Origin: Syntrophomonadaceae bacterium | Lineage (GTDB): Bacteria > Bacillota > Syntrophomonadia > Syntrophomonadales > DTU052 | DNA length: 64,000 nt | Reading direction: 5' to 3' | Assembly (NCBI GenBank): GCA_012729505.1 | Contig: JAAYDA010000048.1 | Coordinates: 70,222-134,221, forward strand | Part shown: one piece after another, positions 19,269 to 61,767 of the stretch | Position numbering within the stretch: position 1 is the first letter of the stretch | Layout: each line of letters opens with the position of its first letter | Notes under the pieces: generated by a model | Seen by the model: the letters and a program-made list of their open reading frames with translations, nothing else | The model's database searches: none | Told to the model about the DNA's origin: nothing | Position numbers and translations under genes: made by a program

Positions 19269-21284
19269 ATGAAAGCTGTTCACCCGCCTTCAGCGATGGA
19301 CGTTGCCTGGAAACGTTTCATATTATATGGCAAGGTAGAGGATTCATCGCCAGTTCGCCCCGAGATTGTGGATTCCTGGTGCAGATGCTATGCGGCGGGA
19401 GTAAATCCTTACGACGGCGCCAGTCATCTGGTTTTGAACGAGAATCAACTTGAGGATCTGCTGAACAAGCATCAGGAGCTGATTGACGTAGCTCGCCCTT
19501 TCATGACGAAATTGTATGAGTTTGTGGCGGGATCGGGTTTTATCGTTCTTTTAGCGGACGAGCGTGGATATATGATAGAAGTGATGGGTGATTACGATAG
19601 CCTGGAGAACGCCGGCAAGGTCAATCTGAGCCGGGGCTACGGCTGGATGGAAGAGGAAGTGGGCACCAACGGCATCGGAACGGCATTGGTCCTGGGACGT
19701 CCTTTTCAGGTATCGGGCCGGGAACACTATTGCCGGAAGATTCATTCCTGGACCTGTTCAGCCGCTCCGATCATTGACGAAAACGGACATATACTGGGCG
19801 CTCTGCAAATGTCTGGACCTTCCAGCGGAGCCCACCTGCATACCCTGGGGATGGTAGTGGCGGCGGTGGAAGCGATTTCCCACCAAATAAGGATAAAAAA
19901 ACAGAACAGCGAATTAACGGTACTGAACAACAGCCTTAATGATATTTTTCAGACCATGTCCGACGGGGCTTTGCTTATCAATATGAAGGGCGTAATAAGT
20001 CAGATTAACCCGGTGGCCGAGCAGATATTGGGGGAGGAGGTACTGGGGAACTCCATATATAAAGCCTTTGGAGGCTCGGAAGAAATCGCGTTGATGCTGT
20101 CGCCGGATAGAACCTTCGCTGACCTGGAAGTGATTATAGATACCGCCAGAGGCCGTTTGCACTGCCTGGCTACCAGCAAGCCCATCAAGGATGAGTACGG
20201 CCGGGTGACCGGCGCGGTTGTCTTCTTCAATCCTATCAACAAAGTCAAAAATCTGGTCAATCGCTTGAACGGCGCCCAGGCCAGCTTCTATTTCAAGGAT
20301 ATCATCGGCGGCAGCCAGAAACTTCAAAAGGCTATCCAGGTGGGCATGCGGGCGGCGTCCAGCACCAGCAACGTGCTCATCCAGGGTGAAAGCGGCACCG
20401 GCAAAGAACTGTTTGCCCAGGCCATCCACAACCAGAGCCGCCGCCGCAAAGGACCGTTTATTGCCTTAAACTGCGCCGCCATTCCCCGGGAGCTGATCGC
20501 CAGCGAGCTGTTTGGGTATGCGGAGGGCGCCTTCACGGGGGCCAGGCGGGGCGGGAGACCCGGCAAATTTGAATTGGCTGCGGGAGGGACTCTTTTCCTG
20601 GATGAGATTGGAGATATGCCCCTTGATCAGCAGGCCTCCCTGCTGCGGGTCCTGCAGGAAAAGAAAATTACCCGGGTGGGGGGAGAAAAGATTATCCCTG
20701 TGGATGTGCGGATAATTTGTGCCACCAACAAGAATCTGCAGACCGAGATTGGGAAGCGTAATTTCCGGCCGGACCTGTATTATCGCCTGAATGTGATAGA
20801 AATTTACGTGCCTCCTTTACGGGAGCGTCGGGAAGATATCGAACCGCTTTTTAATTACCTCCTGGACAAGATCGCCGGGAGAATGGAGATGAAAATCGAA
20901 TACATTGAGCCGGGCGTTTTAGAAAGCCTCCGGCGTTACGATTGGCCGGGCAATGTCCGGGAATTGGAAAACGTAGTGGAGAAAATAATCAATATGGTCA
21001 GGGGATCCGGCATCATGCCTGAACACCTGCCCGCGGAGATCATATCCCTGCATCCAACCTTCAAACCTGGGTATGATCCCGGATCTTCCAATCTCGATAC
21101 GGAGAAAGCGTCCCTGGCGGAAAGCCGGGCGCATACCACGCCGGAGCGGGAGGCGCTGCTGAATTTGCTGGACCGCCACCAGGGCAATATCAGCCGGGTT
21201 GCCCGTGAAATGGGGGTTTGCCGCAACACCGTTTATCGGAAAATGAGACTCTACCATATCGGCAGGGAATCTCACTTCGATTAG
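19269..21284 (+). CDS. sigma-54-dependent transcriptional activator, AcoR-like (N-terminal sensory GAF/PAS region, AAA+ core, C-terminal Fis-type HTH)
   Basis: AAA+ core [21 protein letters not shown] loop ([13 protein letters not shown]), LFLDEIGDM, and C-terminal [24 protein letters not shown]. The N-terminal WKRFILYG...[12 protein letters not shown] is typical of the AcoR family. GGAGGG SD. Confidence 0.9.
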
Positions 21285-23090: not shown

Positions 23091-23128
23091 GGGAGCAACA
23101 GGCCGGCCTGTTGCTCCCGTATTTTTTT
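23091..23128 (+). terminator. rho-independent terminator after aldehyde dehydrogenase
   Basis: GGGAGCAACAGG-CCGG-CCTGTTGCTCCC (12-bp perfect stem) followed by GTATTTTTTT. Confidence 0.85.
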
Positions 23129-58322: not shown

Positions 58323-59504
58323 GTGATGGTCATAAGGTCTTTCTATTCATTGGTCATAATAATGATAGTTTTGGCCCTGTCCATATTCATGATTAGTAAC
58401 CCATCGGCAGCCTTGCAATCCTCTGCCGCCGGACTCCGGCTTTGGTTCGATACAGTCCTGCCCGCCCTGTTCCCTTTTTTTGTGGTCTGTGATTTAATGG
58501 TCAACATCGGTATTGTGCAATTTATGGGGCGGCTCCTTCAGCCTCTAATGCACAAAGCTTTTCGTCTGCCCGGGGAAGCCGGCTTCGTTATTGCCATGGG
58601 CTTCACATCGGGGTTTCCGGTGGGAGCAGTCCTGGTTCGTCAATTATTCAAAGAAAACCTTTTAAGCCGGGAGCAAGCCGAACACTTAGTGAGTTTCACC
58701 AATAATGCCAGCCCTTTATTCATTATAGGCATAGTTGGGGTTGGTCTCTTTAACAGCCCAGCCTTGGGATATCTTCTGGCCTTCAGTCATTACCTGTCAA
58801 ACATTCTGGTAGGGTTGATTCTGGGTCGCGTTCGTTCAGATACCATCCCCATCAGCTCACAGCCCGGCTCTCTCTCCACTGCTTTCTTCGAGTTAATCGG
58901 CCCCAAACAATCTCCGGGACTCCTCCTGGGAGAGGCGATTAAAAAAGCACTGGTGAACGTTACTATGGTAGGAGGCTTTATTATATCTTTTTCCGTGCTG
59001 ACTTCTGCCCTGTCAGAATGGGGACTGATTGGGGCTGTGGCCGGTATGTTTCAGATGCTGGGAATTTCCTATCACTGCTCCTGGGGCCTTGGGATAGGTT
59101 TATTCGAAATGACACTTGGCGCTCAAACTATCTCCATCTCTGCCGGAGCTTATTGGGAAAAGCTCCTGGCCATAACAGTGATCCTGGCCTGGAGCGGCAT
59201 CTCCGTTCAGGCCCAGGTCATGAGTATGATATCTGACCTGGCGGTTCGCTACTCTTATTATCTCAAGGCTCGCATTTTGCAAGCCGGACTCTCTTTCGGC
59301 CTTACCTTTGCCGGTCTTCAATTAACCTCGGACAAATTGCTGCAAAAGGCTGTCAGCATCTCTCCAAGTCTGGCAGCTTGGCCATCTTCCCTGGATTTTC
59401 TTAAGGTAAGCTTCGCGGGAATCTTCGGGGGTCTTTCATTCCTGCTCATTCTTTGTACAATTTCGTGGCTAAAAAATTTCAATCCTTTTCGTAGTGTTCG
59501 CTAA
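58323..59504 (+). CDS. ylbJ: sporulation integral membrane protein YlbJ
   Basis: 393 aa polytopic membrane protein. N-terminal AAGLRLWFDTVLPALFPFFV is typical of the YlbJ/nucleoside-recognition family. Synteny with ylbK/ylbM. Confidence 0.8.
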   Translation: MMVIRSFYSLVIIMIVLALSIFMISNPSAALQSSAAGLRLWFDTVLPALFPFFVVCDLMVNIGIVQFMGRLLQPLMHKAFRLPGEAGFVIAMGFTSGFPVGAVLVRQLFKENLLSREQAEHLVSFTNNASPLFIIGIVGVGLFNSPALGYLLAFSHYLSNILVGLILGRVRSDTIPISSQPGSLSTAFFELIGPKQSPGLLLGEAIKKALVNVTMVGGFIISFSVLTSALSEWGLIGAVAGMFQMLGISYHCSWGLGIGLFEMTLGAQTISISAGAYWEKLLAITVILAWSGISVQAQVMSMISDLAVRYSYYLKARILQAGLSFGLTFAGLQLTSDKLLQKAVSISPSLAAWPSSLDFLKVSFAGIFGGLSFLLILCTISWLKNFNPFRSVR

Positions 59505-59934
59505 TCTCTTTCAGACCCTGATTAACTGAATTCAGGCTTTCAGTAATGATCGACTGCAGATACTTGAGAAGATTTTCGGCATATTCATCGGCACTTCCCC
59601 TTATTTCTCGGGCTGCTTCGTCAGTACGAAGCAGCATCTCTTCGGCTATCTGGTTGGCATTCCTGGTAATTTCATCATCAGATACCAGCCGGGATGCCTG
59701 ATACTTAGAATCATCAAGAATGTAACGAGCTTCTTTTTTTGCCTCTTCAAAAATCCGTTCTCTTTCGCTGATTACCATTTGAGCCGCCTCAATCTCCTCC
59801 GGTAAGACTGCTCTGATACGATCCAGTCTTTCCAGAATGCCTTCAGGCTCCAACAGGAGCTTGGCGGTCATGGGCATTCTCTTGGCGCCTTTGATCTCTT
59901 CCTCAATTTCGTCTAAAAGCTTTATGATTTCCAT
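59479..59934 (-). CDS. hypothetical coiled-coil protein (ATP-synthase-subunit-b-like helices, no TM)
   Basis: 151 aa, Glu/Arg/Ile-rich helical, with a GGGG SD region. Its 3' end overlaps the ylbJ 3' end by 26 bp (convergent). Confidence 0.55.
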   Translation of the reverse strand: MEIIKLLDEIEEEIKGAKRMPMTAKLLLEPEGILERLDRIRAVLPEEIEAAQMVISERERIFEEAKKEARYILDDSKYQASRLVSDDEITRNANQIAEEMLLRTDEAAREIRGSADEYAENLLKYLQSIITESLNSVNQGLKEISEHYEKD

Positions 59935-59964: not shown

Positions 59965-60510
59965 TTATTTTCGATAGTAATTCAGAACTGAATCACCGTA
60001 GCTTTTGCATCTATATCTGTTTAACCCTCCAATTGTTATGGGCATTTCCAATGATTTAGGACTTCTGATAATAACTATGCCATCCTTGCCCAGCAGGGAT
60101 GCGGCTGAGTCCATTATTTTTGAATAATATGAATCCTGTCGAAATGGAGGATCAATGTAAACTATATCAAATTTTCTTTGTTTACGGATGAACTGATCAA
60201 CAACCACGAACACATCGCCTCGAATAACAGTGGCCCGTGATGCCAGCTGACAGCTATCAAGGTTATCTTTTATTATCTTGACCGCTTGAGGATTGTATTC
60301 TACAAAAACAGCATTTTCAGCCATTCGACTCAATGCTTCTATCCCAACAGCTCCGCTTCCTGCAAAAAGGTCAAGAAAAGCTTGTCCTTCCAGATAAGGC
60401 CCAATAGTATTAAACAGCGCTTCCTTTATTTGATCAGTAATTGGCCTGATGTCAGGACCAACAGGCACTTTAAGCTTCCGGCCCTTGCACTGCCCGGCAA
60501 TCACCCTCAA
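59965..60510 (-). CDS. rsmD: 16S rRNA (guanine966-N2)-methyltransferase RsmD (YlbH)
   Basis: RVIAGQCKGRKLKVP, DLFAGSGAVGIEALSR, and VYIDPPF motifs. TTG 60510 follows GGAGGA by 6 nt (ORF-track start 60624 adds an implausible hydrophobic extension). Confidence 0.9.
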   Translation of the reverse strand: MRVIAGQCKGRKLKVPVGPDIRPITDQIKEALFNTIGPYLEGQAFLDLFAGSGAVGIEALSRMAENAVFVEYNPQAVKIIKDNLDSCQLASRATVIRGDVFVVVDQFIRKQRKFDIVYIDPPFRQDSYYSKIMDSAASLLGKDGIVIIRSPKSLEMPITIGGLNRYRCKSYGDSVLNYYRK

Positions 60511-60555
60511 ATCTATTCCTCCATTTGTTGCCTTAACTGGCTTTAGACTAACAAA

Positions 60556-60564
60556 ATTATAGCA
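60556..60564 (-). promoter_or_regulatory. extended -10 element TGCTATAAT upstream of rsmD
   Basis: Read on the minus strand about 45 nt upstream of TTG 60510. T-rich upstream region with a weak TTGTTT -35. Confidence 0.45.
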
Positions 60565-60694
60565 TAAGAAAAAAAATAAAAAACAATGTATGAATCCTGA
60601 TAACCGGGGGAAAGATATCATCAACCGGGAGATAAAACCCGGAAAAACAAACCCTCCCCAACAACTTTACAAAATTCTCCTCTCCCCAAACAAA

Positions 60695-60725
60695 GGCGGC
60701 TGAACGGTTCAGCCGCCGTTTTATT
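60695..60725. terminator. orphan GC-rich palindrome/hairpin GGCGGCTGAA-CGG-TTCAGCCGCC with T-tracts on both sides
   Basis: 10-bp perfect stem, followed by GTTTTATT on the plus strand and TTTGTTTGG on the minus strand. Lies between divergently transcribed rsmD and gpr, 27 nt before the gpr ATG. Confidence 0.55.
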
Positions 60726-60751
60726 AAACAATGTAATCGGAGGCAAAAAGC

Positions 60752-61711
60752 ATGAACGAACTATTGCGACATTTCTCACTTCAAGTTGATCTGGCCATGG
60801 AAGCTCGCGATCTGGTCAGAGGTGATTCTGATCTTGAAATCCCGGGGGTGATTGAAGAAATCGAAGAATTACGCAATGGCAAGATTACCATAATCAGAAT
60901 TACCGATTCGGCAGCTGAAAAAAGAATGGGTAAGCCCATTGGGACCTATGTTACAATTGAAGCCAAAAACCTGAGAATAAGGGATCCGGAAGTTCACGAA
61001 GAGGTATCTCAAGCTATCGCCGGCAAACTCAAAAATGCTGTAGATAAAATCGATCCGAAGGCACCGGTCCTTTTGGTTGGCCTGGGAAATTGGCGGGCGA
61101 CGCCTGATTCCCTGGGTCCCAAAACAATTGAGTCCAGCCCGGTAACACGCCATTATTATAAATATGCCCCCCAGGCCCTGGTGGAAGGGATGCGGCCAGT
61201 TTGCGCCATTTCTCCAGGAGTATTAGGGACCACCGGCATAGAGACCTTCGAAATCATCAAAGGGATAGTTGAAAAAATCAAGCCGGCCTTGGTGCTGGTA
61301 ATCGATTCTCTTTCGGCTCAAAACACCGAACGAATTGGAAGCACCATACAAATATCCGACACCGGCATTCAACCCGGATCTGCTCTGTCCAGTGTGAATC
61401 GCCAGGTAATAAATCATGAGTCTTTGGGAGTGCCGGTGATCGCCATTGGTTGTCCGATGGTTGTAAATGCTGTGACAATTGCTGATCAAGCGGTTCAAGC
61501 TTTCTGTCAAAAAAGAAACCTGCCCTATGACCGGCAGGAAAGTGTAGAGACAATAAAACCGGTACTCTCGTTTTTTGGAGGAAGTCTGACCGTAACCCCA
61601 AAAGAGGTAGACGATCTGGTTGAAAACGTCTCTAATGTAATATCATACGGAATTGCTTACTCACTATTTCCAGAGATCTCCCGTGAACAACTTGAACTTT
61701 ATGCTCATTAA
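60752..61711 (+). CDS. gpr: spore germination protease GPR
   Basis: VLLVGLGNWRATPDSLGP, SPGVLGTTGIETFEIIKG, TIQISDTGIQPGS, and LGVPVIAIGCPMVV align with B. subtilis Gpr motifs recalled from memory. GGAGG SD. Confidence 0.85.
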   Translation: MNELLRHFSLQVDLAMEARDLVRGDSDLEIPGVIEEIEELRNGKITIIRITDSAAEKRMGKPIGTYVTIEAKNLRIRDPEVHEEVSQAIAGKLKNAVDKIDPKAPVLLVGLGNWRATPDSLGPKTIESSPVTRHYYKYAPQALVEGMRPVCAISPGVLGTTGIETFEIIKGIVEKIKPALVLVIDSLSAQNTERIGSTIQISDTGIQPGSALSSVNRQVINHESLGVPVIAIGCPMVVNAVTIADQAVQAFCQKRNLPYDRQESVETIKPVLSFFGGSLTVTPKEVDDLVENVSNVISYGIAYSLFPEISREQLELYAH

Positions 61712-61767
61712 AAAAATAATCAGTAAAAACCCGGATAAAACCATAAAGACCAGATAAGCCATTCTTA

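Follow-up and report, generated by a model that had tools for sequence, protein, structure and literature searches.

The stretch of DNA analysed here, referred to as the window, is 64 kb of sequence from the metagenome-assembled genome of a Syntrophomonadaceae bacterium, and the element in question lies on its plus strand in the spacer between the diverging genes rsmD and gpr. The element comprises a forespore-type promoter, a short 5' hairpin, an unpaired core and a perfect hairpin at 60695-60717, and is very probably a small RNA (sRNA) gene related to CsfG. rsmD, the ylbH orthologue, spans 59965-60510 on the minus strand and scores 166 bits with TIGR00095 against a cut-off of 117.5; its start is a TTG at 60510 with a GGAGG ribosome-binding site ahead of it. 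gpr, which encodes the germination protease, spans 60752-61711 on the plus strand, begins with an ATG at 60752 and scores 334 bits with TIGR01441, above the curated cut-off. The minus-strand sequence reads as an extended -10 of a putative rsmD promoter, TGCTATAAT, at 60564-60556, placed between rsmD and the promoter of the sRNA gene and back to back with the latter; ATTATAGCA-like elements occupy the equivalent place in the loci L026, L033 and L001. The rsmD start, its -10 and the gpr start had been given in a preliminary description of this DNA and were all confirmed when the sequence was re-read. The rsmD-gpr spacer measures 241 nt and is base-for-base the same in five contigs from five other samples; because these are independent assemblies, the spacer is not an assembly artefact. 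The genome has sporulation genes, namely gpr and a ylbJ-like gene.

Hairpin, promoter and fold of the element

The hairpin at 60695-60717, GGCGGCTGAA-CGG-TTCAGCCGCC, has a 10-bp stem with 7 GC pairs and a CGG loop; behind it comes GTTTTATT when the plus strand is read, and TTTGTTTGG when the minus strand is read. The preliminary description had presented it as an orphan palindrome with the look of a bidirectional intrinsic terminator. Its coordinates and the T-tracts on both strands were re-read as described, and a terminator consensus scan called it terminator-like on both strands, in agreement with the bidirectional look. Three distinct perfect hairpins (at least 10 bp, loop of 3-8 nt) occur in the window, compared with a simulated mean of 0.35 (20 first-order Markov simulations), and the hairpin at 60695-60717 is non-random. 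The other two lie at 23091-23118, where a T-run follows and the structure resembles a terminator, and at 59612-59635, inside an open reading frame (ORF) of 151 aa. Read on the plus strand, the terminator extends over 60695-60725, and its T-tract, GUUUUAUU (G-UUUU-A-UU), is imperfect.

Upstream of the hairpin, a forespore-type promoter was found at 60588-60617 on the plus strand, with a -35 box GTATG at 60588-60592, a 15-nt spacer and a -10 box GGGAAAGATA at 60608-60617. GTATG-N15-GGGAAAGATA fits sigma-F-like and sigma-G-like patterns alike. A promoter of the form GTAT(A/T/G)-N15-GGnAATGATA was detected by regular expression at a fixed distance upstream of the element in 9/9 Syntrophomonadaceae loci, and the background of the searches in the window was 0.04/kb for sigma-F and 0.2/kb for sigma-G, the patterns being those of the B. 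subtilis consensus. The earlier remark that the stretch GTATG...GGGAAAGATAT is only loosely similar to forespore promoters underrated it, as both its position and its sequence are kept at all nine loci. Judged by its sequence, the element would carry the sigma-F/sigma-G promoter that is characteristic of the CsfG family.

The predicted CsfG-type sRNA extends from about 60624 to 60727 on the plus strand (~100 nt), its 5' end being placed from the promoter and its 3' end from the T-tract; with the promoter included, the gene spans ~60588-60725. The stem-loop CCGGG-AGATAAAA-CCCGG at 60625-60642, noted in the preliminary description and re-read here, is probably the 5'-terminal hairpin of the sRNA. 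It is followed at 60646-60690 by the 45-nt core AACAAACCCTCCCCAACAACTTTACAAAATTCTCCTCTCCCCAAA, which is unpaired and contains the CU-rich tracts that had been pointed out earlier, CCCTCCCC at 60652-60659 and TTCTCCTCTCCCC at 60675-60687. The minimum free energy (MFE) fold of the window RNA consists of the 5' hairpin, 52 unpaired nt and the terminator (-27.8 kcal/mol, z -3.7), and every element sequence, when folded singly, likewise gave a 5' hairpin, about 50 unpaired nt corresponding to the core, and a terminator.

Conservation in Syntrophomonadaceae

Loci of relatives were obtained via Gpr homologues. Syntrophocurvum alkaliphilum, Syntrophothermus lipocalidus, Syntrophomonas erecta and a number of metagenomic contigs share the gene order rsmD (minus strand), element (plus), gpr (plus), small acid-soluble spore protein (SASP) gene (minus) and recG (minus). 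The 45-nt core is identical in the window and in seven full-length relatives (L028, L030, L032, L033, L034, L035 and L084), and is also present in cut contigs, whole in L027 and lacking only its first base in L038. The eight other Syntrophomonadaceae loci with an unchanged core include those of Syntrophocurvum alkaliphilum, Syntrophothermus lipocalidus, Syntrophomonas zehnderi and S. erecta, and the Gpr proteins of core-carrying relatives are 56-73% identical to that of the window. The core copy in L026, at low coverage, differs, although that of L027, a contig of this same species, is unaltered. Several metagenome and Logan contigs (L027, L029, L031, L036-L038 and L163) stop 126-281 nt upstream of gpr, many of them inside the core. 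A core that is identical across co-occurring Syntrophomonadaceae probably breaks assembly graphs, much as rRNA does.

On either side of the core it is the pairing that is kept while the sequence varies. The 5' hairpin stems of the relatives read CCGGG/CCCGG, GTCGGT/ACCGGC, CCAGA/TCTGG and CCAGG/CCTGG, and every relative has a GC hairpin and T-tract at the terminator position, with a different sequence in each lineage. When a model-fitted alignment of 12 sequences was examined, 3/6 modelled pairs of the 5' hairpin and 5/8 of the terminator were changed on both sides, giving 8/14 for both hairpins together. Paired cells amounted to 85.9%, against 19-60% in slid-partner controls, and 0/500 shuffles reached the observed score; for the terminator, 89.5% of cells were paired. 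These covariation figures probably understate the support because the alignment mis-registers some 5' hairpins. When the window and eight relatives were combined into a covariance model, its sole significant match in the window was 60618-60731, scoring 94 bits. The comparison of relatives that the preliminary description had called for thus shows that the pairing of the palindrome, and not its sequence, is preserved by compensatory changes. In L028 the sRNA ends in a double terminator, with two tandem hairpins behind the core at 2840-2914, first a weak AT-rich one and then a strong terminator with TTTTTTATTT.

With its GC stem-loop and T-tract at the end of a conserved sRNA unit, the hairpin at 60695-60717 is no orphan and very probably acts as the rho-independent terminator of a plus-strand small non-coding RNA gene. 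The earlier statement that no gene ends here is correct for protein-coding genes and fails for the predicted sRNA gene, which ends at the hairpin.

Similarity to the ylbH leader family and CsfG

A search of the entire window with Rfam gave no match at the gathering thresholds. A permissive scan of 60300-60950 returned, as best and only relevant match, the ylbH leader (RF00516), which scored 17.9 bits at 60727-60639 of the minus strand, the E-value being 0.23 over 4227 families; tested against that one family, the E-value would be ~5e-5. The match takes in the hairpin, AGAGGAGAA and UGGGGA, all on the minus strand, and TCCCCA...TTCTCCTCTC of the core is common to the Rfam ylbH consensus read in reverse. 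RsaE gave no significant Rfam match in the same region of the window.

The ylbH leader family is said to go back to Barrick et al. in 2004, and CsfG was reportedly introduced by Marchais et al. in 2011 as a forespore-specific sRNA under sigma-F/sigma-G in endospore formers. The two are linked by experiments in B. subtilis, where the "ylbH leader" gave no Northern signal and the reverse strand was positive, the transcript being CsfG (Dambach et al. 2013, PMC3574147). The 136-nt CsfG is encoded between ylbG and ylbH, and its highly conserved CU-rich stretches are located in loops and interhelical regions (PMC3574147). It has three C-rich regions like those of RoxS and FsrA, and no target is known (PMC3574147; PMC4409812, PMC8216469). 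The suspicion in the preliminary description that part of the spacer might belong to the ylbH leader was therefore well aimed, as the literature shows that family to be the antisense image of CsfG. Rfam 15 continues to list ylbH among the cis-regulatory leaders and places it on the strand of rsmD, whereas the Northern blots say the opposite strand (PMC3574147). A better in-silico fold of the G/U-rich antisense strand probably explains the original ylbH call.

The window and the reversed Rfam consensus share the pattern TCCCCA-N12-18-TTCTCCTCTC, with which metagenomes were scanned. At least 120 loci were returned; ~100 of them were set aside as noise, being either CT-rich sequence of low complexity or a repeated element, and 16 were clear elements. 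Long forms (L117, L078, L055, L121, L114, L042 and L059) score 64-103 bits to ylbH, at or above threshold, and short forms, which are devoid of the internal hairpin (L157, L064, L049, L101, L155, L100 and L108), score 27-40 bits, so that the window, at ~18 bits, stands at the lower end of a graded series. All 14 ylbH matches are on the strand opposite the CU-rich sense; one further long form (L039) and one element of the Syntrophomonadaceae type (L084) stood outside the Rfam scoring.

Like the element in the window and in its Syntrophomonadaceae relatives, 15 of the 16 metagenomic elements are adjacent to and divergent from rsmD among the matches listed (tblastn), and the contig of the sixteenth stops before the rsmD position. 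Because the search pattern held no rsmD information, this synteny is independent support. Forespore-type promoters were recognized by eye ahead of most of the 16 elements, as GTATA/GCATA followed after ~17 nt by a CAnAATA-like or GGnAnnATA-like box.

The three groups also recognize one another in model searches. The Syntrophomonadaceae model matches short forms with 25-39 bits (E 1e-6 to 4e-3), and a model built from the seven short forms only matches all long forms with 28-58 bits and all Syntrophomonadaceae elements tested with 15-38 bits, its top match in the window being 60640-60726 (20.3 bits, E 0.0015); these cross-model scores are partly built in, since the pattern fixes 16 nt common to the window. 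No such circularity affects the synteny, the promoters, the terminators or the independent Rfam scores. The short-form model gave a second weak match in the window at 19980-20063 on the minus strand, which was rejected as noise inside a 671-aa ORF.

The layouts of the three groups are related. Long forms have a 5' hairpin, a stem-loop with UUUCCCCA, a single-stranded UUUCUCCUCUCC, a further hairpin and the terminator. Short forms read UCCCCA-UAAGCUCUUCCUCCGG-UUUCUCCUCUCCC with the terminator directly after. The Syntrophomonadaceae form keeps UCCCCA and UUCUCCUCUCCCC, has ACAACUUUACAAAA in place of the middle C-rich segment and adds a 5' hairpin of its own; the low Rfam score of the window follows from the differences in the middle segment and the 5' hairpin. 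A scan of genome contigs with RsmD returned a single close relative, L001, which has neither the element nor gpr, and the other 22 loci of that scan, from distant Clostridia and other lineages, were without the motif. The Bacillales metagenome-assembled genome (MAG) L023 gave no ylbH match.

Relationship of the element to gpr and rsmD

The element was found to be uncoupled from gpr in several relatives. Two genes lie between rsmD and gpr in Syntrophomonas zehnderi (L034), and the element, with its promoter and terminator, remains beside rsmD. In the closest Gpr relative (L024/25, 81% identical), both rsmD and the element are missing from the region ahead of gpr (L024 2396-3001), and in the closest RsmD relative, a Syntrophothermus MAG (L001), recG runs straight into rsmD without element or gpr (2190-2345). 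The rsmD-csfG-gpr block is thus rearranged or lost even among near relatives. Because these layouts uncouple the two, the element is an independent gene anchored by rsmD, as in Bacillus, and is no gpr leader.

At the window locus itself, gpr follows closely. The hairpin-gpr spacer at 60726-60751 on the plus strand holds the gpr ribosome-binding site GGAGG at 60739-60743, and the distance from stem end to ATG is 34 nt. Eight of ten relatives have a gpr promoter GnATA-N17/18-CAnnnTA between the terminator and gpr, with a -10 that ends 20-26 nt before the ATG in seven of them; no such promoter was found ahead of gpr in the window. Any -10 in the hairpin-gpr spacer would start transcription inside the GGAGG, and the possible -10 TATTAA at 60722-60727 that had been suggested for gpr is disfavoured on this ground.

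The preliminary description had considered that the hairpin might be a terminator in the leader of gpr. Stated fully, the hairpin would be a regulated terminator in the gpr 5' untranslated region (UTR), with the CU tracts sequestering the gpr ribosome-binding site. The absence of room for a forespore-type promoter in the 34 nt, the forespore-specific expression expected of both genes, and the presence of gpr on the same strand after the element in L084 and the distant L101 are all compatible with such an attenuator, which is nevertheless improbable. Besides the layouts of S. zehnderi and L024/25, 14 of the 16 metagenomic loci listed have rsmD without gpr beside the element, and most relatives have an independent gpr promoter past the terminator. 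No alternative antiterminator pairing is evident, the core being invariant and unpaired, and in neither the MFE nor the centroid fold of the read-through RNA did the CU tracts mask the gpr ribosome-binding site. A gpr attenuator was rejected, there being no conserved association with gpr and no alternative pairing seen.

What stands of the leader proposal is local read-through at this one locus. Because gpr in the window has no promoter of its own and 34 nt are too short for one, there is an even chance, judging from the sequence, that its transcription starts at the sRNA promoter and reads through the terminator. In B. subtilis, gpr is forespore-specific and under sigma-F/sigma-G, and the sRNA gene and gpr are expected to share this control.

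The sRNA gene has also to be set against a ylbH leader acting in cis on the minus strand to regulate rsmD. This is very unlikely, although the Rfam match is indeed on the minus strand upstream of rsmD, and the minus strand folds somewhat more stably. The match is sub-threshold, the B. subtilis Northern detects only the opposite strand (PMC3574147), and the plus-strand promoter is conserved in 9/9 loci. To the right of the hairpin, where 34 to ~240 nt of variable sequence are found, there is no conserved minus-strand promoter. The predicted TGnTATAAT promoter of rsmD, with its -10 at 60564-60556, intervenes between the element and rsmD, and the element would consequently lie outside the rsmD mRNA and form no part of its 5' UTR.

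The preliminary description had further considered that the 23-bp palindrome might serve a protein as operator and overlap with a weak gpr promoter. A perfect dyad near the gpr start invites this idea, for which we see hardly any probability: stems and loops (3 to ~10 nt) differ among relatives, the dyad sequence is unconserved across orthologous loci, and compensatory pairing is the signature of an RNA or terminator. Furthermore, a -10 at 60722-60727 or at 60729-60735 would put the start inside the ribosome-binding site.

A small protein is just as implausible, since the ATG-initiated 37-aa ORF at 60590-60703, which ends inside the hairpin and was called in L162 (1039-1152) by one Joint Genome Institute (JGI) annotation, almost certainly spuriously, has no ribosome-binding site and starts within the -35 box at an ATG absent in relatives, while 3/8 relatives have no start codon in any frame, the rest use a different frame, and 45 invariant nt without synonymous variation are unlike coding constraint.

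The terminator hairpin may have a further role on the minus strand. In at least L157, recG points straight at the terminator from the opposite side, and it lies nearby in L100, L155 and L055, an arrangement with which the bidirectional look of the hairpin agrees. In the window, where gpr and recG converge, the terminator scan detected nothing terminator-like between them; because of this, the hairpin may in addition keep minus-strand transcripts that run on from recG from reaching the rsmD promoter. The 56 nt between gpr and recG in the window (61712-61767) contain no SASP gene, and relatives have an alpha/beta-type SASP gene (PF00269) there. Directly downstream of rsmD, at 59479-59934 on the minus strand, lies the gene of the 151-aa protein, which sits where B. 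subtilis has coaD. No curated family matched this protein, the sole match being DivIVA_Wag31 at 20 bits, far under the cut-off, and its gene keeps the linkage to rsmD in the distant loci L100, L101, L108, L155 and L157.

Discussion

The element between rsmD and gpr is, in our judgement, very likely a divergent member of the CsfG family in a Syntrophomonadaceae version that scores under the Rfam threshold. This identification follows from the promoter, the compensatory hairpins, the invariant unpaired core, the synteny with rsmD and the graded similarity to ylbH/CsfG. The promoter, core, covarying hairpins and synteny also bear out the remaining reading of the preliminary description, an independent plus-strand small RNA that ends at the hairpin.

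Several observations weigh against placing the element in the CsfG family. The window score of 17.9 bits is far below the RF00516 threshold of 50. The window has two CU-rich tracts, both unpaired, and not the three C-rich regions of CsfG, the middle CUUCCUCC of the long and short forms being absent and replaced by ACAACUUUACAAAA. It is also without the internal hairpin, and C-rich region 1 (CRR1) lies in a long single strand and not in a hairpin loop. The dependence of the promoter assignment on regular-expression matches to consensus patterns and the built-in part of the cross-model scores count on the same side, as does the fold of the antisense strand, which is slightly better than that of the sense strand (sum of -356 vs -316 kcal/mol over 12 sequences). 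Because the antisense folds better, thermodynamics gives no support for the strand call, which rests on promoter conservation and the literature. Given its layout, the element is filed as a divergent CsfG member and not as a textbook one.

The following mechanism would be consistent with these features. The sRNA would be transcribed in the forespore from the promoter at 60588-60617. Its exposed CU-rich tracts (CCCUCCCC and UUCUCCUCUCCCC) resemble an anti-Shine-Dalgarno sequence and, by analogy, could pair with purine-rich ribosome-binding sites of mRNAs. Such pairing might lower the translation or stability of target mRNAs, as suggested by the analogy with RoxS and FsrA (PMC4409812, PMC8216469). 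In addition, gpr may be partly co-transcribed through the terminator with its imperfect T-tract. When duplexes of the unpaired tract with the ribosome-binding regions of the 68 window ORFs and of SASP genes in relatives were compared, no target stood out. Those formed at the gpr, rsmD and SASP sites were unremarkable, at -9 to -18 kcal/mol (mean -13, standard deviation 4.9), and the best scorers were rnhB and a trmD neighbour, without obvious sporulation link.

A more tentative proposal is that the Syntrophomonadaceae CsfG is a minimal form, reduced to the 5' hairpin, the invariant 45-nt single strand and the terminator, that has here become the 5' part of a gpr unit, in which the leaky terminator could set the ratio of free sRNA to gpr mRNA. 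If true, CsfG would in effect be a 5'-UTR-derived sRNA of a germination gene, gpr having lost its sigma-G promoter, and the lineage-specific ACAACUUUACAAAA between the C-rich tracts might point to the CsfG partner. The repeated linkage with gpr and SASP genes, together with the apparent dependence of gpr on the csfG promoter in this one case, would suggest forespore germination functions.

The sRNA gene removes the anomaly of a terminator between diverging genes, as the terminator ends a gene that had not been annotated. It also indicates that a whole CsfG-like clade in Syntrophomonadaceae escapes the Rfam ylbH model, itself on the wrong strand, when the curated threshold is applied. We know of no target or phenotype of CsfG reported since 2011, and a two-tract variant on a 45-nt invariant strand narrows what is essential in it.

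When compared with known systems, the element shares with CsfG the organization of a small independent RNA gene divergent from rsmD/ylbH, with a sigma-F/sigma-G-type promoter, a rho-independent terminator and conserved CU tracts, UCCCCA followed after 14-16 nt by UUCUCCUCUCC. Beyond the differences in tracts and internal hairpin weighed above, it is ~100 nt long compared with 136 nt and lies directly upstream of gpr, which appears to be without a promoter of its own. The RF00516 ylbH leader has the same position relative to rsmD and the same AGAGGAGAA and UGGGGA on the minus strand; however, it is annotated as a cis-regulatory leader, and the Northern data place the transcript on the other strand (PMC3574147). 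RoxS/RsaE and FsrA differ in their regulators (ResDE and nitric oxide, and Fur, respectively), in their sequences and in having known targets, whereas CsfG has none. They resemble the element in their unpaired C-rich motifs able to pair with ribosome-binding sites, and the literature groups CsfG with RoxS/RsaE and FsrA by motif and structure (PMC4409812, PMC8216469).

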